From Escherichia coli (GTDB taxonomy: Bacteria; Pseudomonadota; Gammaproteobacteria; Enterobacterales; Enterobacteriaceae), in NCBI RefSeq assembly GCF_003991155.1, contig NZ_CP031294.1: a stretch of DNA of 64,000 bases. One strand, written 5' to 3'. The notes below the pieces were generated by a model. It was not told the origin of the DNA. It worked only from the letters and a program-made list of their open reading frames with translations, and did not search any database. Both the position numbers and the translations under genes were made by a program. Shown piece by piece: positions 2,094-64,000 of this stretch; the stretch's first letter is position 1; every line of letters starts with the position of its first letter.

Positions 2094-2308
2094 GCTGCCA
2101 CCTCTTTGATTACATCAAATGCTGAATTAAATACGAGCACGATAGCCAAAGCGTTTATGACTACGTCGTGCACCGGGGAAAAGACTTTACGAATGACACC
2201 AGTGAAAATGCAGTCGATGACAAAAGCTATTGAAACGATGAGTAACAAGTATTCAATAAAAATCTTCATGATAGGTAGATACTAACTTATATAAATTTTA
2301 CTGTAAAC

Positions 2309-3156: not shown

Positions 3157-3987
3157 TTATTTCACTGTAATGAAAGGAGTGTTAGCCCCTTGAGTCATGT
3201 ACTGCGGTAACTGGCCATTCCATTTATTGATGGCTTCCAGTTCCATAACGTTCGGGTTTTGACGCAGAGCTTCACCGCGCAGACGAATGGCGTCCGCTTC
3301 TGCTTGCGCACGAGCACGGATAGCATCAGCTTCACCATTAGCCTGTTCACGTAGCATATTCGCCTCAGCTTTACGTTGTTCAACTTCCTGCTGACGTTGC
3401 AGAGTACGCTGGTTAGCCGTTACTTTGGCGTTAATAGATTCAATGACAGTTTTTGGGTAATCAGGCTTTCCAACCCATGACAGGCTCAGTACCTCAATAC
3501 CAACCGGAGACATCTCTTTCTGAATATCTTTCAGTGCGTTGTCCAGCAATTGTGCCTTACCACCGTCGATAAATGAGTCAGTGGTCATACGGCTGGCCAA
3601 ACGGTTTAGAGAGTCGGCAATTTTCTGACGCAGATCTGATTCGGTGATATCGTCTACGCCTTTGCGATAGGTCTGGAACACCGTCGTTACCTTGTCACGA
3701 TTAACCAGATACGCAACGCCAATTTTGTGACCAATAGCAGTACCGTCACTCATCTGGAATGTGAACGGCTCGTCGTAGGTCTTCATTTGTTTGAAGGTCG
3801 GGAATACGTAAAGTTCGGTGTTAAGACCTGTCCATTGGCGACCAACGCCAACCACTTCACCAATCCCTTTGTCTTCACCTAATTTGTTTACTTTGATGCC
3901 AACGTATCCAGGCTCCACGCGATCGCAGCCAGTAAGACCCATTGTGCAAATAGCCGCCAGAGCAACTGCAAGTAAACCTTTCTTCAT
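3157..3987 (-). CDS. SPFH/band-7 (HflK/YqiK-like) lipoprotein
   Basis: Signal peptide with lipobox LTGC; C-terminal Ala/Glu/Arg/Gln-rich coiled region typical of the SPFH family. Confidence 0.55.
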   Translation of the reverse strand: MKKGLLAVALAAICTMGLTGCDRVEPGYVGIKVNKLGEDKGIGEVVGVGRQWTGLNTELYVFPTFKQMKTYDEPFTFQMSDGTAIGHKIGVAYLVNRDKVTTVFQTYRKGVDDITESDLRQKIADSLNRLASRMTTDSFIDGGKAQLLDNALKDIQKEMSPVGIEVLSLSWVGKPDYPKTVIESINAKVTANQRTLQRQQEVEQRKAEANMLREQANGEADAIRARAQAEADAIRLRGEALRQNPNVMELEAINKWNGQLPQYMTQGANTPFITVK

Positions 3988-3990
3988 TAC

Positions 3991-4191
3991 TTATTTCCCC
4001 TTTGCTTTGATTAATGAGTTGATAAACTTACGACCAGCAATAAGACCGATTACAGGAGCACCAAAACCAACGATAACTCCAAACATGACGGCTAAATCAC
4101 TCTTGGTAGAAATCAGCGACGGAACCAGTAAACCGTAGATGAGAGCCACTGAAAGGCCTGTGGCTACTGCCAATAGATAGATTTTGATCAT
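3991..4191 (-). CDS. Small integral membrane protein (possible NfeD-like partner of the SPFH protein)
   Basis: 66 aa with two hydrophobic helices; stop lies 4 nt before the SPFH start. Confidence 0.4.
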   Translation of the reverse strand: MIKIYLLAVATGLSVALIYGLLVPSLISTKSDLAVMFGVIVGFGAPVIGLIAGRKFINSLIKAKGK

Positions 4192-4251
4192 GTGTTTTCC
4201 TATGTGGTTGTTATGCGAAAATAATAAGTAAGTGCTTATATATTTTCAAGA

Positions 4252-7659: not shown

Positions 7660-7776
7660 GTGTTTCTCCTTGTTGTGATTTGGCCGATGGCGCTATGCGC
7701 GTTGGGCTTTCGTTCATTCGTGGCTCTTTCGAGCTGTTAAATGATAGATCAGTACTTACTTATTATCTATCAAAAA

Positions 7777-8208
7777 TCAACGGGGAGTAATAAAGCGTTC
7801 AGAGCCTAATCGCTCTAATTCAACGATGGCCATCTTTGACGCCTGAACGATCATGTCTCGGCGATGCGAAAAGGCGGCGACAGCATGTTTGTATATGTCT
7901 GCGATGTGCCGTGCTTCATCCAACTTCTGCCGTTTAGACAGATACTGTGGGTTTGTTTTAACCTTAGCGTCCAGTACAGATTCGTTGAACTTAATGCCAT
8001 TCATACTCAAGTTCTTACGCTCTGTGTCGTATAGCTTTGCTTCAACAGCTTCAAGGTTAAGTTTTGCTTCTGCGACACTTCTTTCTGCATGGGCGAGTTT
8101 TGAGCCATATTCCATCAACAGGCGGGGTTGTCTACGCCAGACTTCTTCCAGATTGTCTCGGTCAAACTCGAGATCGGACATGATTTTTTCGTATATATTG
8201 GTGCTCAT
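7777..8208 (-). CDS. Hypothetical protein (predicted coiled coil)
   Basis: 143-aa ORF with no recognisable catalytic motif. Confidence 0.4.
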   Translation of the reverse strand: MSTNIYEKIMSDLEFDRDNLEEVWRRQPRLLMEYGSKLAHAERSVAEAKLNLEAVEAKLYDTERKNLSMNGIKFNESVLDAKVKTNPQYLSKRQKLDEARHIADIYKHAVAAFSHRRDMIVQASKMAIVELERLGSERFITPR

Positions 8209-8452
8209 TTTGATAGATTCTCACTTATCATGATGTATTGATTATAGAGCTTAAATTAACGCTAATCCAAGATAGACCGTTATGCTATCTGCTCGAACAA
8301 CCATTTCTTAGGGCTTGTTAATTGCAGGAGTTTCTCCTATTGTGTTCGTGGATTTAATCGAAAGAAATATGGGTTTTGAAAAGGATAGAATCTTCATGTT
8401 TCCGCACAGCATTTATCATTAATTATTCAAATTAAAAGGAAATATTATCCTC

Positions 8453-14196: not shown

Positions 14197-14291
14197 GCGT
14201 TTTTCCTTTGTTTTCTAATGAGCTTTCAACTTCTTATATAAATATACCATCAAATATCGTAAGTGATTACTTATCATTAAGGCTGTTCTAA

Positions 14292-16498: not shown

Positions 16499-16711
16499 TT
16501 AACAGATTCTGACGGCTAAAGACCCGGAGCCGGTATTGAGAAGCGTGAAGCGTTTGTTGTTAAGTTCGAATATAAAGCCAGTTGTGTCATTCACACCAAC
16601 CTGAATCTGCTCATTCGGTAGATCGGTGAGGATGTCAGCTACACACTCAACAGCTAATTTTTGTACGTGTCCGATCTCAAGAGCGATTAGGCTGGAAATA
16701 GTGGTGTTCAT
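16499..16711 (-). CDS. Hypothetical protein
   Basis: 70-aa ORF; weak support. Confidence 0.3.
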   Translation of the reverse strand: MNTTISSLIALEIGHVQKLAVECVADILTDLPNEQIQVGVNDTTGFIFELNNKRFTLLNTGSGSLAVRIC

Positions 16712-16888
16712 TCAATCAATCCATTCTAACTTATACTATGGTAAGGAATACTACTAAAATTTGTATCAATACTGAATACATTCATATCATATGCAAGTTA
16801 CTTTTCTTACCTATTTTGGGCTAATTTTTCTCCGTGCAATGGCCTTTAACCGGTCTTTTAAGTGCCTATCGAAAAAAATGATAATAGC

Positions 16889-16916
16889 TTTACAACCCTA
16901 ACCTTTGATGTAATAT
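16889..16916 (+). promoter_or_regulatory. Candidate sigma70-type promoter for the HTH regulator gene
   Basis: TTTACA, 16-nt spacer, TAATAT, about 45 nt upstream of the ATG at 16963. Confidence 0.4.
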
Positions 16917-16962
16917 CGGTAAGCACTTACCAGAGAGAATTGAACGCGCAAAGGTTGTAACC

Positions 16963-17349
16963 ATGTCTGATAACAAGATTGAATTTATAGAAAGTCGCTA
17001 CGCTGCTTTTATCGCAGGGTTGATTGAATCCTCACCTATGAGCCAGGCCCAGATAGCCAAAACAATTGGGTATAAAAACGCCAACAACCTTTCTTTAATT
17101 AAAAGCGGCAAAATTCCTTTGCCTATCGATAAGGTTCGTCCGCTGGCGCTGGCACTGGGCATTGAGCCAAGTCGTCTTATGATGATGGTGCTGGAAGAAC
17201 GCCAACCCGAACTCGCAGCATTTTTATACAAAGAAGGCACTGCTCCTCTTAACGAGGACGAAAAACAGGTTCTTGCTGCATATAACGAGCGATTCGGTAA
17301 AGAGAAAGGCGCATCACAAAAGGTTGTTGAGGCCATAAAGTCTCTATGA
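16963..17349 (+). CDS. HTH transcriptional regulator (XRE/Cro-like)
   Basis: Helix-turn-helix signature SQAQIAKTIGYKNANNLSLIKSGK; 128 aa; convergent with the recombinase gene. Confidence 0.6.
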   Translation: MSDNKIEFIESRYAAFIAGLIESSPMSQAQIAKTIGYKNANNLSLIKSGKIPLPIDKVRPLALALGIEPSRLMMMVLEERQPELAAFLYKEGTAPLNEDEKQVLAAYNERFGKEKGASQKVVEAIKSL

Positions 17350-18620: not shown

Positions 18621-19031
18621 TTAAGGGTTAGTGAGAGCTTGAAATGCGGCCGCGTAGGTAGCGATATCGACCATAATTTTTGGATCTTTCGCGTACTGAT
18701 GTGCGTTGTTAGGGAAGATTGCCAATAGGCTATACACATCTTGGAAATGTGCATGTTGACTGTAAACGAGTGCACGGTCGCTTGTGCAATTGAATCTGCT
18801 GCGGCTGCTGGTTCGTTCTTGCTTCGTGAACAAGAGATGAACGTGATAAACGCGGGAGGACACGATAGCACCAGGAGCCGTATACGGGCCATCTTTGCCG
18901 AATATGGCTGGGTACATGCCTTGTTTAAACGACTTGAAATCGTTGAGTAACGTAATCTCTAAGTCAGGCTTTATATCGAAGGTCGGCTTTAAAAATTGGG
19001 CGTAACTATCACTGTTCCATGTGATCTTCAT
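18621..19031 (-). CDS. YafO-like toxin domain protein (putative type II toxin)
   Basis: 136 aa; segments FGKDGPY, VYHVHL and LLAIFPNNAHQYAKDPKI resemble my recollection of E. coli YafO; unverified. Confidence 0.4.
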   Translation of the reverse strand: MKITWNSDSYAQFLKPTFDIKPDLEITLLNDFKSFKQGMYPAIFGKDGPYTAPGAIVSSRVYHVHLLFTKQERTSSRSRFNCTSDRALVYSQHAHFQDVYSLLAIFPNNAHQYAKDPKIMVDIATYAAAFQALTNP

Positions 19032-30584: not shown

Positions 30585-31334
30585 TTAATTAGATAGGGGA
30601 TCAATAAACCGCCGTGCTTCTTCCAGTTCTTCTGGAAAGTGGGCGGAAATAAGGCGCTCTGGAACGATTTCCATTAGCCAGATAGCGGAGAAAATTGCGC
30701 GTATGCGCTTGCTGCGGGGGATGGTGCGTAAACGCTCCAGAATCCACTCAAAATAGCTTTCCTGGATCGGGTTGAACTGCATGTCTCCTATATGCTTAAA
30801 GCTAACCAGAGAGTCATCCAGACGGGTTGTTGCGCGTCTGGCTAATTTCTCTTCAAATATCTCAATCAGTTCTGGCTGCCACAAATGCTGTGGGCGAGGC
30901 AGCTTGTCCCACAGACGTCGTGCAGCTGCGGAAAGAACGGTGGAGATAAAGTAGTCGTATGAGCAGCAATAGCGGTCAGCAAACTGGCGTGCTTTCCATA
31001 GCGACGTTTTATTGGCAGTCGACAACTCCTGATAAGGCAGGCGTTTTAACCCGGTGGTGAACGGAGCTGTTTCAAAGTGTTCGCGACCGTGCGTCAGCAT
31101 GATATTTGAGTACTGACGTTTGTATGCCTCCGTAAACAGACAGGTGGCCATAAGAGGATGCATGTCGCGGTAATCAAACCACTTCGTATCGAAGAGTTCA
31201 GCCTCGTCTTTGCAGCGCGACAAACCAATGTTTTCAGCAACCCACTTATCCATAACAGCGGTATTCCACTCTGTCATGAAGTCGTACTGGTCGTTGTCGA
31301 TGGTGTCGAAAAAGATTTGGCTCATGTGGCTCAC
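30585..31334 (-). CDS. Hypothetical protein
   Basis: 249-aa ORF; upstream region carries both conserved intergenic motifs. Confidence 0.45.
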   Translation of the reverse strand: MSHMSQIFFDTIDNDQYDFMTEWNTAVMDKWVAENIGLSRCKDEAELFDTKWFDYRDMHPLMATCLFTEAYKRQYSNIMLTHGREHFETAPFTTGLKRLPYQELSTANKTSLWKARQFADRYCCSYDYFISTVLSAAARRLWDKLPRPQHLWQPELIEIFEEKLARRATTRLDDSLVSFKHIGDMQFNPIQESYFEWILERLRTIPRSKRIRAIFSAIWLMEIVPERLISAHFPEELEEARRFIDPLSN

Positions 31335-31503
31335 CTGGTAGGTAGTTACTTACTTATCACAATGAGCTGATGATAGCGATTGGTGGCAGTTTTTGGAAGT
31401 GGAAACGGAAGGGAGTTGTTCTGGTGGGTATCTTTTGAAAGACCTGCTTCCGTATATTTAATAAGTTACTTATTATTTATATACAGAAACAGGTCATGAA
31501 TAC

Positions 31504-33207
31504 TTAATTATTAAGCAATCTGCTCACACGTAGTTTGTTAAGACTTGATCTAGAGGCCAGTTTCGTTAATGCACCTATTGCTTTATTCGTGATTTTTTGC
31601 TGTTCTTCTGTTAGTTCTTGCATACTTTTGAATCTGAGCAACCCCTTTCTCACTAAATCCAAAGCATCCTGATTGCGGGATAATATCCACTTTAAATAAT
31701 CATCTTCAGAGAAACTGTTAAGATATGCTATGTCACTATGATTAAATTTGCCTTCAATTATTTTGTATAAAACATTCTCTAAATTAGTCTCTTCAGGCTT
31801 CTTATCCATCAATTTTTTTTGAATTAGCAGACCTAACGTTTCGTTACCAAATATCTCTACATACAAATTCCGAAAAGCAGTATAAGCATCATCTTGGCTA
31901 ACAAAGGCATCTGCATATGCCTCTATATAACTATCACAATCAATCTCCAATCTATTTAAGATATCAATCAAGCCTATGAAGTGAGCAACAGGTATGTGTG
32001 AAAGATTGTCGTTAATTACACATTTTATCTTAGAAATAAACTCAGATTCATTGTCCTTGAATGAGTCACTAAAAATATCCCAAACATTGTTAACCTCACA
32101 TAAAGCCTTGTGTTCTTTATATTGTTTATTTTTTTCTTCTATTATACCTCGAATATTGCTTTCAGTAGAAAGATAACCATTCTTGAGATAAAAATCTATG
32201 TCATCATCGAAAGCAATTTCCGCTCGTTCATAAATAATATCAAGACTATTAATAAATGAATATACAGAATCATCCTTTTTATCATCTAACATGTAATCAA
32301 ATACATGTATGTTTTTAATTGATTCTTTAAACAAGGCATAATCAACACCTGGAACACCAGAATAGTAAACCACTGAAAACAGAACCAATCTATTGATAAA
32401 ACTTTCTCTAACCTTATCCTCTGCCAAGCTTAGCTCATTCCTAAGATTAACCAGAGATGTTTTTATTTTATTTAATATACGGATATTTTTAATGCCTAAG
32501 TCATTTGCTAAGACTTTTAACAAAAGAAAATCAGAATCAGTTTCATAAAAAACTTTACGTAAGTTCTTCTCAGGCGTAGGATCGTATTTTATTTCGACAT
32601 CAATTACTTTTTCTCTGTACTCTAAAAACTGTTTTTTTGCAGTTTCATCATGTAAATTATCTTCATTTAAAATTAGAACAACTTTGCAACCTTTTCTTCT
32701 TGCTAATTCATCAATTACCCCCATAATTTCTTTAACTTCTAGCGAATTACCTTTTCTTTCAACATCATCAATACAAACCAAATAATTATTAACAAATTTA
32801 TACTCAAGAGATGACAGCAGGTTATCTGTTTTGAACCCAAAAAAATCGTTCTTTCCGAAATGTATTAAAAATTTTGACAAGGAGTTGTATTTCAACCATC
32901 CCCAAAACCCATTTCTATAACGAATCATAGTTCGATCCGTTTCAGATAAAATTAGTTCTTTATATTTCTTTTCATTAATTGGTGTGGCACAATGATAAAG
33001 AGTTTTTTTAATATCACCAATAGAGTTAACCCCAAACAAAGAAACATACGAATATGCATTAAAATCTAATCCTTCAGAATGCTTAGTATAAAAACTATTC
33101 CAATAATGAGTTTTACCAACGCCCCAATCTCCTTTTATGACGGCAACCCGATGATCTGAAACTAGAAAATTTTTTAGAAATGATTCTATCGATTCCATTA
33201 GTATCAA
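31504..33207 (-). CDS. AT-rich accessory gene: P-loop NTPase, KAP-family-like
   Basis: Walker A GDWGVGKTH near the N-terminus, Walker B LVCIDDVER; 567 aa; markedly lower GC than neighbours. Confidence 0.5.
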   Translation of the reverse strand: MILMESIESFLKNFLVSDHRVAVIKGDWGVGKTHYWNSFYTKHSEGLDFNAYSYVSLFGVNSIGDIKKTLYHCATPINEKKYKELILSETDRTMIRYRNGFWGWLKYNSLSKFLIHFGKNDFFGFKTDNLLSSLEYKFVNNYLVCIDDVERKGNSLEVKEIMGVIDELARRKGCKVVLILNEDNLHDETAKKQFLEYREKVIDVEIKYDPTPEKNLRKVFYETDSDFLLLKVLANDLGIKNIRILNKIKTSLVNLRNELSLAEDKVRESFINRLVLFSVVYYSGVPGVDYALFKESIKNIHVFDYMLDDKKDDSVYSFINSLDIIYERAEIAFDDDIDFYLKNGYLSTESNIRGIIEEKNKQYKEHKALCEVNNVWDIFSDSFKDNESEFISKIKCVINDNLSHIPVAHFIGLIDILNRLEIDCDSYIEAYADAFVSQDDAYTAFRNLYVEIFGNETLGLLIQKKLMDKKPEETNLENVLYKIIEGKFNHSDIAYLNSFSEDDYLKWILSRNQDALDLVRKGLLRFKSMQELTEEQQKITNKAIGALTKLASRSSLNKLRVSRLLNN

Positions 33208-33249: not shown

Positions 33250-33609
33250 TCAACCTTTCTTCATCAACTCTCGTTTAATTTCATCGGTACGCATCGTAAC
33301 GTCGGCAGCTGTGATCGCCTCGTTAAGCTTCACGATGTCCTCGATTTCCTGCGGTGACTTCTCTGCCAGATGGAAAATGGCTGCTCGAATCACGTCAGAA
33401 CGAGTGAACTTCTCGAAGCGAGGGATGAACTTCATCATCTCCAGCAGTTCGAAGTATTCGTCTTCCAGTGACATTGTGCGGCTTTTAATTTTCTCTTTGC
33501 CACGAGTCGGGCGTCCCTGTGGTCTGACTGGTTGGCGCAAAGGAGTTGTGTTCTTAGCCGGTGCATCAGGCTCTTTGCGCTTTGCTAGGTCACCCATTTT
33601 CATGGACAT
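33250..33609 (-). CDS. Small basic protein downstream of parA (possible ParG/RHH-like partition adaptor)
   Basis: 119 aa, translationally coupled to parA (shared coordinate 33609); role inferred from position only. Confidence 0.35.
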   Translation of the reverse strand: MSMKMGDLAKRKEPDAPAKNTTPLRQPVRPQGRPTRGKEKIKSRTMSLEDEYFELLEMMKFIPRFEKFTRSDVIRAAIFHLAEKSPQEIEDIVKLNEAITAADVTMRTDEIKRELMKKG

Positions 33610-34277: not shown

Positions 34278-34453
34278 TGGAGAGTTCCCTTTGCGTATAT
34301 AATTATCGTCTGAAACAACTTGTTTTCTTATATGTGATATAGCCTAAATGCCTACGGCTGTGGTGTAAAGGTTAAATGGTAGGTGCTGCCTTAGAATTTT
34401 TAGGCGAGAATTAATGGCTGTTAACAAAAAAGGCGACCAAAGTCGCCTGATTT

Positions 34454-37241: not shown

Positions 37242-37431
37242 GAAAAGTCAAATCGGGATGGCGGATTTATATCACACTTCTCCTTTCAATTATAGGTATA
37301 TACTTACCTACCTATGCATATACCGTTTAACGGCTGTTCAAATTCGTATCTAGTAACTCACTAATATATCCCTATGATTGCGGCTGTGAGATCGCATTTT
37401 AAACCTCACAGCCATATAAATAATGTCTAAA

Positions 37432-41460: not shown

Positions 41461-41553
41461 GTTGAATATGCTCCTTGATTTGGCGGGTTATCCTTGCCCG
41501 CCATTAAGTAAATACTTACCTATTTTTACCGATATAAAATTTTTTTTCCACCA

Positions 41554-48401: not shown

Positions 48402-48450
48402 CCTGTCAGCGCCACAATGATAGTAAATTAGTACTTACTTATCCAGATAC

Positions 48451-53757: not shown

Positions 53758-54075
53758 TTACTTTGCCCCTTCGCCAGCCGCTTTTTCGTTTTCTTCATCA
53801 ATCACTTCCATAGCGAAGGTGAAGATCTGCTGGAGTTGCGGAACAGTCAGTTTTTCAAGAACTTCGTCAGGTACTGAAGGGATAACCTTACGAACCAGAT
53901 CTGCATAAGCTGTCACTTGCTCAACAGGAGACATGTTCATGAGATCTTTGCCTTCCATCTGCTTGATGGAAACGAACAGACCTACCGTCATTTCAACGAT
54001 GGGATATTCCTGACCGCCAAATTTGATGCTTTTCTTCGGAGGCAGAATGGAATCGAGATCGAGTAATTTGGTCAT
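53758..54075 (-). CDS. Tail assembly chaperone (lambda gpG-like)
   Basis: 105-aa acidic protein immediately downstream of the major tail gene and upstream of the T-like frame. Confidence 0.5.
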   Translation of the reverse strand: MTKLLDLDSILPPKKSIKFGGQEYPIVEMTVGLFVSIKQMEGKDLMNMSPVEQVTAYADLVRKVIPSVPDEVLEKLTVPQLQQIFTFAMEVIDEENEKAAGEGAK

Positions 54076-54130
54076 TGGTTAAAATCCTTTTAAAAGAGAG
54101 GCCCATCCTGAGCCTCTGCTTAATTACTGA

Positions 54131-54913
54131 TTAATCTGCGGGGTTAATCGTTACTGACTTAGTTGCCTTCTTACCACCGCTATTGCTGGTGAAGGAGATA
54201 TTTGTAGAACCCTGCGCCACACCACGTACCAGACCCGTTTGATCTACCGTGGCCTTTTCCTGGTCTTCGGATTCCCAAACACCGGTTTTGTCTGCGGCAT
54301 CAGCTGGAGTGATTTCGGCTGTCAGTTGCACAGTTTCTCCAGCTTTTACGGTTGGAGATTCCGGTGAGATCGACACAGTTTTTACCGGTTTAGGACCGCT
54401 CATTTTGCCCAGAACGCCTTCATCATCCGGGTATGCGCTGAACTGAACAGAGAACACACGAACATCATCAGACTGGTAGGTCATAGTGAAGTTGCCCGCG
54501 GTTGCCGCTTTCGGGATGGTCAACACATAGTCGGTGGTGTCCTGCGGAGTCAGAACCAGCTCCTTCGCCACATCAATCAGGTTAACGCCCTGTGCAGATG
54601 TGATCGTGACAGAGTTGTCATCTTCGCTCAGAGTAGAACCAGGCATCAGGTCAACCATGTTTTGGAGTACAGACTCAGCCAGAGGCGCGGTGATGGTAAT
54701 GTTGCGCCCCTGAACTAATTCGGAAATTACGGTCTGCCCCAACTGATCGACGGTGACTTTCAGCGTTTCAGTGGCTACTTCAACCTGAACACCACCTTTG
54801 GTGTAACCCAAATCCACACCACCAAACGACACCTTACAGGCACCAAGTTTGATGTTTTTTACATGGGTATTAGACATTGATGGAAAACTCCTTTTTCCGT
54901 TAATTCTACGCAT
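54131..54913 (-). CDS. Major tail tube protein with C-terminal Ig-like (Big_2-type) domain
   Basis: Position upstream of G/T; C-terminal segment VSISPESPTVKAGETVQLTAEITPADAADKTGVWESED resembles a bacterial Ig-like domain, as in lambda gpV. Confidence 0.65.
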   Translation of the reverse strand: MRRINGKRSFPSMSNTHVKNIKLGACKVSFGGVDLGYTKGGVQVEVATETLKVTVDQLGQTVISELVQGRNITITAPLAESVLQNMVDLMPGSTLSEDDNSVTITSAQGVNLIDVAKELVLTPQDTTDYVLTIPKAATAGNFTMTYQSDDVRVFSVQFSAYPDDEGVLGKMSGPKPVKTVSISPESPTVKAGETVQLTAEITPADAADKTGVWESEDQEKATVDQTGLVRGVAQGSTNISFTSNSGGKKATKSVTINPAD

Positions 54914-54951
54914 TCATTGCGCTAATAGTAAGTATATACTTACTAATTGAG

Positions 54952-58457: not shown

Positions 58458-58500
58458 TTCTCGCTCCTACAAAAAGGGTGGGCGTATAGCCCACCCTTTA
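58458..58500 (-). terminator. Rho-independent terminator downstream of the capsid gene (minus strand)
   Basis: AAGGGTGGGC-GTAT-AGCCCACCCTT hairpin followed on the minus strand by TTTTTGT. Confidence 0.5.
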
Positions 58501-58530
58501 ACATAGATAATTACTTATCTACTTCACTGA

Positions 58531-59406
58531 TTAAATTTTTACATTGGTCAGTGCAGCGATAGCCTTATCGTGCTTATTCGCCAGAGAGCAGTACCACTTC
58601 ACACGGGTACGTACTGCGTCTTTGTTCTGTACAGTACCAATGTTTTCAACAACGATACCTGCGTTGTCGCCGCCATACAGACCAGTAACGCCGTTCTCTT
58701 CTGACAGATGCAGGCAGTAGATGCTTGCTTTGCCAGAATCGGTCGGGATGAAGTCGTTGATGATGAACGGAACGCCGTTATGACACAGCATCGGACGACC
58801 GAAGTTCTCCATCATGATTTCAGACGGACCTACGTTTACTGTACGCAGCAGCGCACGGTAAGCACGCAGGTGCTCTGAACGCATCATGATGCAGTCAGCA
58901 CCAAGATCTTTCACCGCATCGACCAGTTCGTCGAACATAGAGAAAGTCATAGATGCACCGGCGATATCGATCTTCTGATCTGCGTGCATCAGGCGTGGAA
59001 TGCCGTCAAACGCCTTGTTGTTGGAGCTGGAGTCACCCAAAATCAGGTTGCGACGGAACGCACGAGCCAGACCTTTAACTTTCTGACGAACCTGAATAGC
59101 CAACTGGTTGTTGGTGTCGGCCATAGTGGTCGCCAGGAATTTATCAACGTCTACGTCACCAGCCAGAATACGCAGTTTCGCAACGCATTCTTCGAAGGTT
59201 GCTGCACCTTCAGGGATGGTGTCGTTAACGTCGATGAAGGTAGCTTCACTCAGCGTTTTTTCACGGTTGTACAGATATGCCTTTGAATTAATTTTCATAA
59301 AAGGCAGGATGGCAAACAGGTCATCGCGATCGATGATAGTTTCGATCACACCCTGTTCAAGTTCGTTGTTAGACAGCTTTTCAGCTTCTTCACGCAGTAA
59401 TGGCAT
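58531..59406 (-). CDS. Major capsid protein
   Basis: 291 aa; position after the scaffold gene, strong terminator immediately downstream; no motif check possible. Confidence 0.55.
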   Translation of the reverse strand: MPLLREEAEKLSNNELEQGVIETIIDRDDLFAILPFMKINSKAYLYNREKTLSEATFIDVNDTIPEGAATFEECVAKLRILAGDVDVDKFLATTMADTNNQLAIQVRQKVKGLARAFRRNLILGDSSSNNKAFDGIPRLMHADQKIDIAGASMTFSMFDELVDAVKDLGADCIMMRSEHLRAYRALLRTVNVGPSEIMMENFGRPMLCHNGVPFIINDFIPTDSGKASIYCLHLSEENGVTGLYGGDNAGIVVENIGTVQNKDAVRTRVKWYCSLANKHDKAIAALTNVKI

Positions 59407-59431
59407 CTATCAATTCCCTTTGATTTAGATG

Positions 59432-60319
59432 TTACTTAAGTCCAATTTTCCCCAGACCGGAGGCCAACTTATCCATAGTCGACTTGTTCTTCGGTTGGGA
59501 TATTGTGTAGGTCGATTTGGAATGTGAGCCTACACCCTGCTTGGCTTCGCTACGCATCAATGCGTCAGCTTCCGGATCTGCCCGCACAATGCGTTCAATC
59601 GCGGATTCAAACGGCAACGGCTTACCTTCACCGTCAACCAGAACAGCTCGTTCTTTGTGACCTGCCGGTTTGTCATAACCCACTACGCTACCGTCTTCAC
59701 CCACTTCAAAATGAGAACCGTAGATCACGCGGGCTTTTGCCGGGGTCATCAGAACTTTGTCACGTAGGAAGAGAGAGTTACTGAAGGAAGCGCCCACGGT
59801 CATCTCGACTAATTGAGATTTCAGTGATGCGTTTTCACTTTCCAGTGCTGCATAACGTTCGTCACGCTGTGCCAGCTCTGCCTGGTGTGCTTCGATCATC
59901 TGTTTTTTAACAGCATCGAACTCACCACGACGCTCCAGTTCAGCTTGCTCCGCCTCACGACGTGCGTTTTCTGCGGCCTGTTCAGCTTCTAAAAGCTGGC
60001 GAGCACGAGCCGGATCGATATCACCGTACTGAGCAAGCTGATCGGCCAATGTGCGCTCTTTCTCTTTGCGCTTCATGTTCTCCTTCAGCAGTTCAGCACC
60101 AGCTTTCTTGGTTTTACGAAGTTCGGCCAGTAACTCTTCCTGAGTCATGCCAGCGTATTCGTCATCGCCCTTCGGCTGCTCTTTTTGTTCACCCTGTTTG
60201 TCAGGATCTTGTGTACTCTGCTCATTATCAGCAGCTACACCGCCAGCGCCTCCACGCTCATGCGCTTCAGCGACATCCATCAGACCACGACGGGCCAAAA
60301 GCATTTGCCACAGATTCAT
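59432..60319 (-). CDS. Scaffolding protein
   Basis: Highly charged Glu/Ala/Arg/Gln-rich predicted coiled coil, between portal and capsid genes. Confidence 0.5.
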   Translation of the reverse strand: MNLWQMLLARRGLMDVAEAHERGGAGGVAADNEQSTQDPDKQGEQKEQPKGDDEYAGMTQEELLAELRKTKKAGAELLKENMKRKEKERTLADQLAQYGDIDPARARQLLEAEQAAENARREAEQAELERRGEFDAVKKQMIEAHQAELAQRDERYAALESENASLKSQLVEMTVGASFSNSLFLRDKVLMTPAKARVIYGSHFEVGEDGSVVGYDKPAGHKERAVLVDGEGKPLPFESAIERIVRADPEADALMRSEAKQGVGSHSKSTYTISQPKNKSTMDKLASGLGKIGLK

Positions 60320-60340: not shown

Positions 60341-61915
60341 TCACTCGTTCTCTTGAGTAGATGAGTCCCCATTCCCTCGGGGTTGATCTTGCCCGCTTTC
60401 TTGGGCTGCACCACGATCATAAGTAAGTACTGACTTATTTTCAAGGGTATTTAGATCATTTTTTGGAGGAAAATTCAAGAGATCTTTATCAAATTCCTTT
60501 TTCATCGCCTCAGTAATGTTCGGGAAAATCTTCTCAATAAGCATTTCCATCTGGTGACGACGTACAGAGTCCGGTGCCTGAAGTAATGACAGTTTCTCGG
60601 CAACAGAAAATTCATCAGTAAGGCCACGAATATCGAAACTTTCTGGATATGCAATTAAAGAGTGGTCTTCGTCCAGATCTACCCCCATCCATTTCGCAAC
60701 CAGTAGCATGATTTGGCGTTCAGCCCTTTCCAGACGCTCTGCTTTTGTGACAAGCAAGCTATTTACACGCTGGAAGTCATACATTTTTGCGGCACCAGAT
60801 GAATTATCGATTCCCTGTGCGTTGTCCTGCTTCGTTCGCTCACCAGCTACACCAACTGAATGGTAGATTTCGTTAATCACCGTCTTAATCGTAGTGATGA
60901 TCATCTGAGCTTGTTTCGGGTCTGGTGACAGATAAAACGGCTGGTTTCCACCTTCAGAATCGTAGGTGAAGACTCGCTTTGTGCCCATTTCAAGCACTTT
61001 AGTGTGGTTTTCATCACCAGGTAAAAGCGACTGTACCGGTATAGCCAACTGGCTAAATGTCTGATCCTGAATAATGGCATCAAGGTTTGACAGATAGTTT
61101 GCAACCGCACGATCAAGATAAGCGATATCATCGATCAACGATGGGCTGAAATACGGTGATTCACTTTCTCCAATACAATCAACAGGAAACACAGGAACTA
61201 CGCCGAGATTATGCTCACCGCTATCCTCTAAAATAACTTTTGCCTGACGGCGACCTGCTCCACCAGCGCCCTTCTTCACTTCCTCACGGAACAGATACCA
61301 CTCGTTTTGTGTCCACAGACGATAACGTTGGTATTCCTGACCTGTAGAAGTAAAAGGATCTGCGTCATCACGAGCGACTTCCACAATTAACGCCCACAAC
61401 ATATTCCCGTCGTCGTCCCATGCCACATCCAGCATTTGCTGAGGTGAAATCCAGTAGGCGTAGGCGCGAGCATCTTTCTTTTTCTCGTCAGCTACTGACT
61501 CAACATCACCACTCATCGTGCTATCGACAACAACCCATATGCGACCGTAAATAGACGACTGCAAATCAATAGCGGCCATAAATGAGTCAATAGAGGCATT
61601 CTGGCGAGTCGCACGTTTCCAGAAATTGCGGATCTGCTCTGGTGCCTCTTCGATATTTCTATGAATGTCTTCTTTAAAGAGATATTTGTTGATGAGGTTT
61701 ACCACCTCACGAGTGTGGTTGAAGCGATAAGCACGTTCAACTCGCTCCTTAAACTCCTGATCTCCCTCTTTAAAGTAACGAAAGATATTGTCTGTAAACC
61801 AACCACGCCCGCCAGCGTAAGTGCTGGCGAGGAAGTCCCAATGTTCTTTTTTCTTTTCGTATTCCGGGTGGCGTCGCGCCACCAGATCCTTAATTTGTTT
61901 GTCGTTCAATTCCAT
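60341..61915 (-). CDS. Portal protein
   Basis: 524 aa, immediately downstream of the terminase large subunit; position and size only. Confidence 0.6.
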   Translation of the reverse strand: MELNDKQIKDLVARRHPEYEKKKEHWDFLASTYAGGRGWFTDNIFRYFKEGDQEFKERVERAYRFNHTREVVNLINKYLFKEDIHRNIEEAPEQIRNFWKRATRQNASIDSFMAAIDLQSSIYGRIWVVVDSTMSGDVESVADEKKKDARAYAYWISPQQMLDVAWDDDGNMLWALIVEVARDDADPFTSTGQEYQRYRLWTQNEWYLFREEVKKGAGGAGRRQAKVILEDSGEHNLGVVPVFPVDCIGESESPYFSPSLIDDIAYLDRAVANYLSNLDAIIQDQTFSQLAIPVQSLLPGDENHTKVLEMGTKRVFTYDSEGGNQPFYLSPDPKQAQMIITTIKTVINEIYHSVGVAGERTKQDNAQGIDNSSGAAKMYDFQRVNSLLVTKAERLERAERQIMLLVAKWMGVDLDEDHSLIAYPESFDIRGLTDEFSVAEKLSLLQAPDSVRRHQMEMLIEKIFPNITEAMKKEFDKDLLNFPPKNDLNTLENKSVLTYDRGAAQESGQDQPRGNGDSSTQENE

Positions 61916-61941
61916 TTGAATAACCTTAGATAATTACTTAC

Positions 61942-63198
61942 CTATCGAGAACCACCAAGAATAACACGGTTTTTGACTGGATACCTACGATGTACTGGAT
62001 AGCCCAATGCGTCTGCACTATGCTCAATGCCACCTGTCTTATCCATATCTCGTGTTCCAGGCTTGTAGATGACTTTTTCCAGTGAATCAATCAAATGCTT
62101 GCACTTCGGATCGATATACAGCCGGATATCTCCAGATGCGGTCATCAGCATTCGGTTAACAGCATTAACACGATCCGCAATTGGCGGGTGCTTTTTCGAA
62201 TAATCGACACGTAAGAATCCCTTCTCTTTGAATATGTCGACGTCAGACTCCCCGCGAGCATGTTGGCGATAAGCACCTGCCGGATCTGGAAATACCGTTA
62301 TCTGTGATTTCCAGCGCCAGAAGCGTCTCTCAAGCTCATCACAAACCTCTGCCGTGTTAGAGGAAAAGAGCACCAATTCATCAATTGCCCATAGCTCACC
62401 ATTTGGCTGAGGTTGCAAAATTACTGAAGACATCGGGTCAATGTTGAAGTCCTGCCCTACCCATATAGGCAACCGAGGGTTGAACTGAAGCGGTTTTACA
62501 TGCACGTTACGATCGAACGGGTAGTAAACGCGCCCGGACATGTTCTCAAAGCTCGCCAGGTACTCCTGAGCGAACGATTTCGGGTCCATATCGTTCTTAG
62601 CAGCTTCAATTTCCGCCGTAGGTACAAACGGAGAATCGGCAGTTACAAACTGCCAGCTCTTCCACTGTCCCTTTCTTTGCAGCTCTACGTTCTGGCCTAT
62701 AGTCCACAGTTTGTGAAATTCCGAGAAGCCTTTTGGCGTACCAATGATCAGTGCACCGCCGCGTGTCGATGAAAGAGTAGGTCGTAACACCTTGTACCAG
62801 GTGTCAGCCTTCATATCCTGAAATTCATCAAGCACTACAAAATGCAACGCTACGCCGCGCAGAGTGTCAGGCTTATCAGCACCTTTGAGGGCGATCTCCG
62901 AACCGTTCTTCAACACGATTGTCATCGTGGTGTCGTTCTTTTTCCTAACCCACTTACGAGGCAGAACTTCCTGTAGATCGTCCCACAAAATCTGGCGAGC
63001 CATCTGGTAAGTAGGAGCGACATACCAGACTCTTTGCTTTTTTTCCTTTGCCGCCGCACGAATAATAGTGGAGATCGACAACCGGGATTTTCCCCAGCGT
63101 CGACCAGCACAAACAACTTTAAATCGATGCGGAGACTGGAAGACTTTCATCTGTCCAGAATGCAGTTGCACAAGACTGAGCGAGGACGGGATTGCCAT
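61942..63198 (-). CDS. Terminase large subunit
   Basis: Walker A CAGRRWGKS, Walker B VVLDEFQD, C-terminal nuclease-like region with acidic residues; 418 aa. Confidence 0.8.
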   Translation of the reverse strand: MAIPSSLSLVQLHSGQMKVFQSPHRFKVVCAGRRWGKSRLSISTIIRAAAKEKKQRVWYVAPTYQMARQILWDDLQEVLPRKWVRKKNDTTMTIVLKNGSEIALKGADKPDTLRGVALHFVVLDEFQDMKADTWYKVLRPTLSSTRGGALIIGTPKGFSEFHKLWTIGQNVELQRKGQWKSWQFVTADSPFVPTAEIEAAKNDMDPKSFAQEYLASFENMSGRVYYPFDRNVHVKPLQFNPRLPIWVGQDFNIDPMSSVILQPQPNGELWAIDELVLFSSNTAEVCDELERRFWRWKSQITVFPDPAGAYRQHARGESDVDIFKEKGFLRVDYSKKHPPIADRVNAVNRMLMTASGDIRLYIDPKCKHLIDSLEKVIYKPGTRDMDKTGGIEHSADALGYPVHRRYPVKNRVILGGSR

Positions 63199-63830: not shown

Positions 63831-64000
63831 AGATCCCTCTAAAACACACAGAGCGCGTCCATGCGCTCTAAAACAACTTGTTTACTGCATCTGCTAACCA
63901 ACTTGTTTTCTGGGGTGTTTAATTAGGTCTGGCATGTCTTACGAAGCCTGCTTCCGTATATATTTAATAAGTTACTTATTATTTATATATACAGATGCAG

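Follow-up and report, generated by a model that had tools for sequence, protein, structure and literature searches.

The 64-kb window analyzed here, the whole stretch of 64,000 nucleotides, comes from an SSU5-like phage-plasmid and carries a recurrent 22-bp palindrome that is, judged by the independent variation of its two arms, a double-stranded DNA site for a dimeric protein. The best-supported candidate for the protein that binds it is an Xre-type repressor encoded in the same window. We hold with moderate confidence that this prophage repressor would bind the palindrome as a dispersed operator and directly occlude about 20 lytic promoters, in the manner of P1 C1. Searches of the literature for the motif string, for SSU5 promoters or operators and for D6/plasmid-prophage elements found no prior description of the motif.

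The window is 98-99% identical to E. coli plasmid-prophages. Over a 6-kb stretch around the palindrome at 48422-48443, identity is 98.8% to the E. coli plasmid-prophage CP053388, 97.7% to Escherichia phage Cyrano, which is the phage-plasmid pLF82, and 80% to Salmonella phage SSU5. Save for a few replaced modules, the window corresponds to Cyrano positions 1 to ~61,700 read in reverse complement, which explains why most of its genes lie on the minus strand. Its gene order is terminase, head, tail, lysis, par, replication, the integrase-repressor module and recombination genes. Cargo specific to the window, with no Cyrano counterpart, includes a Sel1-repeat protein, a KAP-family P-loop NTPase, a YafO-type toxin and a 302-aa protein, encoded at 26750-27946 (+), 31504-33207 (−), 18621-19031 (−) and 20164-21072 (+). 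The NTPase gene sits in a segment of 36% GC, and a Pfam scan of the 302-aa product of 20164-21072 matched no family.

Alignment of the matches reveals that a recurring 12-mer is the left arm of the palindrome GATAAGTAAGTA·CTTACTTATC. The operator consensus is (A/G)ATA(A/G)GTAAGT·ACTTAC(C/T)TAT(C/T), and the core common to the whole family is ATAnGTA-N6-TACnTAT. The preliminary description had proposed a recurrent upstream motif and named enrichment over a shuffled background as a check. The recurrence is real and the enrichment significant: TACTTACTTATC, with up to two mismatches, has 25 matches in the window against 4.05 expected (sd 1.9), a count reached by 0 of 100 shuffled backgrounds. The commonest 8-mer relative to expectation in the window, ATAAGTAA/TTACTTAT, is seen 15 times against 1.7 expected. 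A strand-symmetric search with ATAnGTA-N6-TACnTAT, which specifies 12 bases and tolerates up to two mismatches, yields 21 matches against 1.6 expected, and 15 of the 21 are intergenic in a window whose non-coding share is only ~7%. A position-weight scan identifies about 16 strong sites, nearly all intergenic and 13-fold above chance. The sites and their accompanying elements, with position-weight (PWM) scores, are as follows.

61925-61946, minus strand: palindrome at the large terminase/portal junction, 9 nt before the portal ATG (PWM 24.5)
60416-60444, minus strand: near-consensus sigma-70 promoter TTGAAA-N17-TATGAT, its spacer filled by the palindrome 60418-60439 (PWM 25.1)
58498-58519, minus strand: palindrome directly after the major capsid gene (PWM 18.7)
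~58496-58470, minus strand: strong intrinsic terminator directly after the 58498-58519 palindrome
54927-54948, minus strand: palindrome before the major tail (Ig-domain) gene (PWM 20.2; 58 loci)
54922-54908, minus strand: small hairpin after the 54927-54948 palindrome
48422-48443, minus strand: palindrome between tail genes M and L, reading GATAAGTAAGTACTAATTTACT on the minus strand (PWM 25.2)
48413-48391, minus strand: hairpin after the 48422-48443 palindrome
41503-41524, minus strand: palindrome before the tail-fibre gene (PWM 25.5)
41502-41482, minus strand: hairpin after the 41503-41524 palindrome
37291-37312, minus strand: palindrome before the holin/lysis cassette, its right end merging into TATAAT (PWM 20.4)
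31337-31358, minus strand: palindrome before the first gene of the helicase/primase block, an exact 12-mer match (PWM 24.8)
26070-26091, minus strand: palindrome before the CYRAN_34 orthologue (PWM 20.9)
22554-22575, no strand assigned: perfect palindrome GATAAGTAAATAAATACTTATC after the ligase operon, with 0 mismatches to the symmetric pattern (PWM 22.7)
20058-20079, plus strand: palindrome 84 nt before the window-specific gene 20164-21072 (PWM 21.3)
14254-14275, minus strand: palindrome before the CobS-like gene (PWM 17.2)
8208-8229, minus strand: weaker palindrome before the UvsY-like gene (PWM 17.9)
7743-7764, minus strand: palindrome before the gp32-like SSB gene, its right end merging into TATCAT (PWM 24.8)
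4221-4249, minus strand: sigma-70-type promoter TTGAAA-N17-TATTAT with the palindrome 4223-4244 in its spacer
2270-2291, minus strand: palindrome touching the ATG of a 59-aa ORF, the CYRAN_60 orthologue (PWM 20.9)

This catalogue corrects the motif as it was first outlined. Position 48430-48444 is real but is merely the left arm of the palindrome at 48422-48443. Ten of the eleven places originally listed are strong sites; the match near 60341 is only a weak one, with two mismatches and beside a ribosome-binding site, and the true site of that locality is 60418-60439, within the 3' end of the portal gene. The sites at 2270-2291, 4223-4244, 8208-8229, 20058-20079 and 22554-22575 had been missed. 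The proposed spacing of 15-60 nt upstream of genes does not hold, as distances to the start codon range from 0 to ~100 nt in the window and from 0 to ~130 nt in Cyrano. The association with minus-strand genes applies to most sites, but 20058-20079 precedes a plus-strand gene. The perfect palindrome at 22554-22575 lies ~750 nt upstream of a tRNA cluster, which occupies 21251-21808 on the minus strand and encodes Ser-TGA, Thr-TGT, Tyr-GTA and Asn-GTT.

The distribution of the motif follows gene function and is conserved among relatives. Cyrano and SSU5 have about 20 sites each and the Klebsiella element pJN2-26 at least 22, and downstream of every site in these three lie DNA-metabolism, head, tail or lysis genes or a ParB-domain operon. 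Genes other than late genes are also preceded by sites, among them those for SSB, UvsY, helicase/primase, NrdA, ThyX and a methylase. No site was found in the par, rep, toxin-antitoxin or integrase regions of the window, Cyrano, SSU5 or pJN2-26, and the full motif is absent from plasmid-maintenance and lysogeny genes. Orthologous junctions hold sites across 80 related IMG/VR loci, the shared ones being terminase/portal, the portal 3' end, post-capsid, pre-major tail and tail M/L. The terminase/portal site at 61925-61946 is kept in 78 loci though its arm sequence varies; the −35, −10 and palindrome of 60416-60444 are kept together in 76; the post-capsid site at 58498-58519 has orthologues in 73, many with perfect AGG/CCT palindromes; and the site at 48422-48443 has orthologues in 31. 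Across the 80 loci the sequences of the arms drift and the dyad symmetry persists. The core ATAnGTA...TACnTAT is identical in elements from E. coli, Salmonella and Klebsiella.

A hairpin begins 1-9 nt past several of the motif sites, and some of these hairpins carry T-runs. After the 54927-54948 site, pairing in the hairpin at 54922-54908 is retained in relatives through differing sequences (GCGCA/TGCGT, GTGTC/GACAC and GGCAC/GTGCT). Motif plus stem-loop looks like a conserved composite. A further hairpin of this type is present in Cyrano at 67909-67930.

The palindrome itself behaves differently from an RNA stem. Each arm fits the half-site consensus independently, which argues for a dimeric protein on double-stranded DNA and not for an RNA hairpin. 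At position 5, 21 of 38 sites agree with the mirror position, where 17.1 would do so by chance (P=0.12). Among 50 sites, 80.3% of cells are paired where shuffles give 80.5%, and covariation scores 0.158 (0.156 in shuffles). Mismatched A·C and A·A occur often, also mid-stem, and in the 40 Cyrano and SSU5 sites the information content is nearly mirror-symmetric in gene orientation. An RNA-level element, in which an mRNA hairpin serves as a processing site, a translational operator or a terminator, is therefore scarcely probable. The sequence is palindromic and sometimes adjoins the ribosome-binding site, and the family encodes a FljA-like protein with Sm-like features (Pfam Flag1_repress, 1e-80) that is a possible operator binder; however, covariation is no higher than column composition gives, about 20% of cells are unpaired, and the variation in distance to the start codon in Cyrano is wide. 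The hairpin suggested by compensatory-looking TAGGTA...TACCTA pairs was rejected on half-site independence together with the pair count. As a binder of the palindrome, the FljA-like CYRAN_114 was rejected, since its family is RNA-binding and it is a poor fit to a symmetric DNA site. The same protein family, named for the 'repressor of phase-1 flagellin', shows weak Hfq/LSM similarity, and its gene copies are found at Cyrano 100780-101301 (outside the window), SSU5_121 and pJN2-26 31722-32252.

In the consensus of the 40 Cyrano and SSU5 sites, the palindrome merges into a −10-like TATCAT that takes up motif positions 19-24. Near-consensus sigma-70 promoters are present at two sites (10/12), and a few others reach 9/12; the majority have only the −10-like hexamer and no recognizable −35. 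No other promoter-like match in the 20-kb late region is as good as the first of the two, TTGAAA-N17-TATGAT at 60444-60416; the region is otherwise depleted of such matches (11 against 22 expected). This promoter lies within the portal gene 3' end, ~98 nt ahead of the scaffold/major-capsid pair. The promoter at 4221-4249 lies right after the terminator of the RecA-like gene and ahead of a small membrane-protein gene, and its orthologues in Cyrano and SSU5 read TTGAAA-N17-TATCAT. The fixed position of TATCAT and the two near-consensus promoters with the palindrome in their spacers speak for the earlier suggestion that the motif marks element-specific promoters. Against it stand the general lack of a −35, the symmetric conservation of the A/T bases that flank the motif, and the 6 of 20 Cyrano sites that lie 0-16 nt from a start codon, an awkward distance for a promoter. 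We reject the view that the motif is a promoter served by a phage RNA polymerase or sigma factor. The other early suggestion, a transcription-factor site, fares better: we infer it from the dyad symmetry, the independent arms, the conserved orthologous junctions and the co-variation with the repressor described below.

The candidate repressor and its putative operator are located as follows.

16963-17349, plus strand: gene for an Xre-type HTH repressor of 128 aa, the CYRAN_45 orthologue (Pfam HTH_19; PHROG 8 'transcriptional regulator')
16918-16931, plus strand: partial site GGTAAGCACTTACC, equal to the inner 14 bp of the motif, at ~+1 of the repressor promoter; putative autoregulatory operator

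The repressor gene is adjacent to and convergent with the integrase gene, and its promoter consists of TTTACA at 16889-16894, a 16-nt spacer and TAATAT at 16911-16916. The only exact match to GTAAGnnCTTAC in the window is at this promoter. All lineages examined have GGTAAG(C/T)ACTTACC just past the −10 of the repressor promoter, with repressors 56-100% identical and flanks diverged. The recognition helix GYKN(A/P)NxLSLIK is kept between the E. coli and Klebsiella repressors, whose elements share the motif. In the L072/L222 lineage the recognition helix is GFPNVNTLSIIK instead of GYKNANNLSLIK, the half-sites are shifted to ATATGTA (position-5 T in 10/18 against 13/120 elsewhere; Fisher 4.6e-5) and the autoregulatory site is TGTATGTACTTAC, a co-variation of helix, half-site and autoregulatory site that comes from a single divergent lineage (9 sites). 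Missing from the autoregulatory site are the outer ATA/TAT, the positions that carry most information in the dispersed sites, and the outer part of those sites could be read by a protein other than the repressor. The region 16712-16962, between the repressor gene and the divergent CYRAN_46 orthologue, also contains inverted, half-site-like copies of GGTAAG at 16740-16748 and 16803-16811 and a second copy of TCGRTARGCACTTA at 16854-16872.

The co-variation also bears on a site for a host transcription factor, which would couple lytic genes to host physiology. The core is identical across E. coli, Salmonella and Klebsiella elements, and some motif-linked genes show a macrophage-specific rise, both of which speak for such a factor. 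The arms appear to fit the NarL/NarP heptamer, TACYYMT, and the ends to resemble a Fur box (GATAA...TTATC). Their spacing and orientation, however, are unlike those of Fur (7-1-7) or NarL (7-2-7) sites, the half-sites shift jointly with the phage-encoded repressor in one lineage, and a variant of the site stands at the repressor's own promoter, so that a host factor is very improbable.

The layout of the candidate operator has parallels in other systems. KorA/KorB of IncP plasmids and Arc/Mnt of P22 are small dimeric repressors that bind short palindromic operators over the −10 or the −35/−10 spacer, and IncP plasmids repeat the same operator at many promoters around the plasmid. The likeness to these systems is one of operator layout, with no sequence or protein homology noted, and the ParB-domain proteins encoded here have no recognizable HTH. 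The closer comparison is with P1 C1. In P1, one prophage repressor has many operators spread over a ~100-kb plasmid-prophage; these overlap sigma-70 promoters, cover separate operons and include sites at the repressor's own gene, as annotated in the P1 record. The arrangement proposed here would be alike, with clear overlap of a sigma-70 promoter at 60444-60416 and 4249-4221. P1 operators, in contrast, are asymmetric 17-mers (ATTGCTCTAATAAATTT) and not a 22-bp palindrome, and C1 is an unrelated 283-aa protein, whereas the candidate here is a 128-aa Xre-type HTH protein. Sites here also lie within the clusters for head, tail and lysis, whose P1 equivalents are served by Lpa-dependent late promoters instead. 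Strict membership in the P1 C1/operator family is ruled out by the different sequence of the palindrome and by the Xre-type candidate; the P1 system is an analogue only.

The late promoters of P1 provide the model for a different reading, in which lytic promoters depend on an activator: the palindrome would replace the −35, and a phage activator would recruit host RNA polymerase to a −10-only promoter. Its candidate is CYRAN_123, a small winged-helix protein whose gene immediately precedes that of the small terminase, outside the window. We regard this possibility as a plausible, though less likely, rival. Like P1 late promoters, most sites have an AAGT/ACTT dyad box directly upstream of the −10-like TATCAT and lack a −35; the motif center AAGTACTT resembles the P1 late '−22 region' AAGT(G/T)ACTT, set 4 nt ahead of the −10. 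A long inverted repeat before the small terminase includes AAGTAACTT (AAGTTACTT on the other strand), a further likeness. CYRAN_123 is present in 74 of 80 loci with an almost invariant recognition helix, occupies the usual place of late activators and is at background level in LB lysogens. Its homologues are all annotated 'hypothetical' and are found only within the SSU5-like family; a PDB search gave no informative relative for CYRAN_123 or CYRAN_117.

SSU5 retains its motif sites and has no repressor module, which also favors an activator. Tblastn found no copy of the repressor in SSU5, and its annotated map from the tRNA to the CobT-like gene has no integrase or repressor gene; the sites are kept nonetheless. 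SSU5 was reportedly recovered as a lytic phage, and this would be consistent with its having lost the immunity module. Retention of the sites without a repressor also fits a positive role in lytic growth. In addition, promoters without a −35 would be weak and would hardly need repression, which counts against the repressor reading.

Several observations weigh against the activator. An HMM built from 11 Lpa proteins (PF25716) found no homologue among six-frame ORFs of the window, Cyrano and SSU5 (best E=0.14), and Pfam BPP1_LPA matches P1 Lpa alone among the scanned proteins. The geometry differs, with an 8-bp box and a 3-nt gap between AAGTACTT and TATCAT against the 9-bp box and 4-nt gap of P1, and the dyad center is ~1.5 bp nearer the −10 than in P1 late promoters. 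Lineages further removed within the family do not keep the inner box AAGTACTT. The two near-consensus promoters are silent in LB although they require no activator. The half-site shift of L072 has no matching change in CYRAN_123, the other conserved DNA-binding candidate, whose recognition helix is unchanged in L072/L222. Finally, the motif precedes DNA-metabolism genes too. Membership in the Lpa-type late-promoter class is ruled out by the missing homologue, the different geometry and the presence of sites outside late operons.

A second, much longer inverted repeat was noted in the window and in Cyrano. It consists of GACCTGCTTCTGTATATA, an AT-rich center and TATATACRGAAGCAGG, and is present in the window at 31440-31520 and at 63945-64000, where it is cut by the window end. 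At its center is AATAAGTNACTTATT, and within this the P1 late '−22 box' AAGTTACTT. In Cyrano it occurs at 31174, 78094 and 108356, before the first gene of the helicase/primase block, CYRAN_80 and the small terminase. This repeat may be what had been described as the 'first' motif, and it could be a main early or late promoter or a terminator.

Some breakpoints of homology fall close to the palindrome. The upstream edge of the 26070-26091 site is the exact breakpoint of homology with Cyrano (26090/26091), and at the 8208-8229 site homology with Cyrano, SSU5 and pJN2-26 breaks off at 8208-8228. When the window was compared with each of these three elements, 2 of 18-23 breakpoints per comparison fell within 25 nt of a motif center against ~0.3 expected (P=0.02-0.04), with 8228/8229 and 26090/26091 as examples. 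Further breakpoints near motif sites lie at about 37275 and about 25182. A reading at the level of DNA mechanics, in which the sites are junctions for module exchange by recombination, or centromere or silencing sites for ParB-domain proteins, could account for these breakpoints and for the one Cyrano site that precedes a ParB-domain operon. It is nonetheless quite improbable: the enrichment is modest and is equally expected from exchange at operon boundaries, where operators give microhomology; the ParB-domain proteins have no DNA-binding HTH in Pfam; and the likely par operator upstream of parA uses another repeat, TAGGC.

The ParB-domain proteins and the ParG-like protein beside ParA were rejected as binders of the palindrome. 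Pfam finds only a ParB_N domain and no HTH in the ParB-domain proteins, and the upstream region of parA, beside which a ParG-like protein is encoded, has TAGGC repeats and not the motif. These TAGGC/GCCTA repeats, at 34300-34420 on the minus strand upstream of a small parA, probably serve as par operator or as centromere. Gene 33250-33609, next after parA, is called RelE/ParE in the Cyrano annotation and appears by eye to be of the ribbon-helix-helix ParG type.

Modules flanked by a shared box are familiar from the PeSL cassettes of T4-type phages, in which a repeated promoter-like box, often with a stem-loop, marks the borders of exchangeable modules. Here, too, motif box, stem-loop and homology breakpoints coincide between genes. 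PeSL boxes, in contrast, are ordinary early sigma-70 promoters, non-palindromic and without a repressor, in lytic phages.

Expression in lysogens bears on the sign of regulation. Per-gene RNA-seq of the Cyrano lysogen is available (S1 Table, PMC9928086), and in these data the repressor gene is expressed. In LB, transcripts of the genes behind both near-consensus promoters do not exceed the detection floor (PMC9928086). After 6 h in macrophages the genes behind the near-consensus promoters rise 20-80-fold, alongside the early gene CYRAN_46, and those behind the Cyrano sites 9017 and 59398 rise likewise (PMC9928086). The induced set comprises CYRAN_4-5, 12-13, 46, 56-57 and 60-62, and no Cyrano virion production was reported in macrophages (PMC9928086). 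The window counterparts of the induced genes lie at about 58531-60319, 53758-54913, 16499-16711, 3157-4191 and 1546-2269. The rise suggests partial derepression without a completed lytic cycle, although the step-ups at these four sites were selected post hoc.

Across motif junctions in general, transcript levels tend to fall (P=0.0004 in the B6 condition; P=0.011 with the comparison restricted to junctions whose gap is 25 nt or more). Lysogen RNA-seq shows no general step-up across all junctions, a further point against element-specific promoters, and induction does not correlate with −35/−10 quality (Spearman 0.01). The data fit silenced unit boundaries; coming from uninduced cells near the detection floor, they do not settle positive versus negative regulation.

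Taken together, the repressor reading proposes that a dimer of a regulator encoded by the phage-plasmid would bind the 22-bp operator on double-stranded DNA. Copies of the operator stand at nearly every lytic transcription-unit boundary, in DNA metabolism, head, tail and lysis; each would lie over a −10-like hexamer and, at sites with a −35, over the −35/−10 spacer as well. Because the operator overlaps these elements, the bound protein would occlude RNA polymerase. The plasmid prophage would thereby silence about 20 lytic promoters directly through the Xre-type repressor, which would also limit its own promoter via the weaker partial site. Repression is putative: from the sites, their symmetry, placement, conservation and co-variation, all of which are observed, we infer binding, the identity of the binder and the repressive sign.

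The motif may instead be an element of two layers, which we consider unlikely. The outer ATAnGTA...TACnTAT, which does not vary throughout the SSU5 supercluster, would then be the lytic-promoter core of the family, recognized by a conserved factor, and the inner 14 bp an immunity-specific repressor operator. As part of the same proposal, the 22-bp box would serve at once as promoter, as immunity determinant and as a microhomology junction for module swaps among heteroimmune phage-plasmids.

SSU5-like phage-plasmids, which include pHCM2, pLF82/Cyrano, pECOH89 and many Klebsiella and E. coli plasmids, are common in clinical Enterobacteriaceae and bear resistance genes. The searchable literature yielded no account of their lysis-lysogeny control. 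If the repressor reading is true, late structural operons are repressed directly and without a cascade, which is unusual among temperate phages. An operator consensus paired with its repressor would explain the silence of about 20 lytic units on a 100-kb plasmid, and together with the candidate repressor it would predict the whole lytic regulon and define immunity groups by sequence alone. Operator or repressor mutants would be simple handles for inducing or curing SSU5-like elements.
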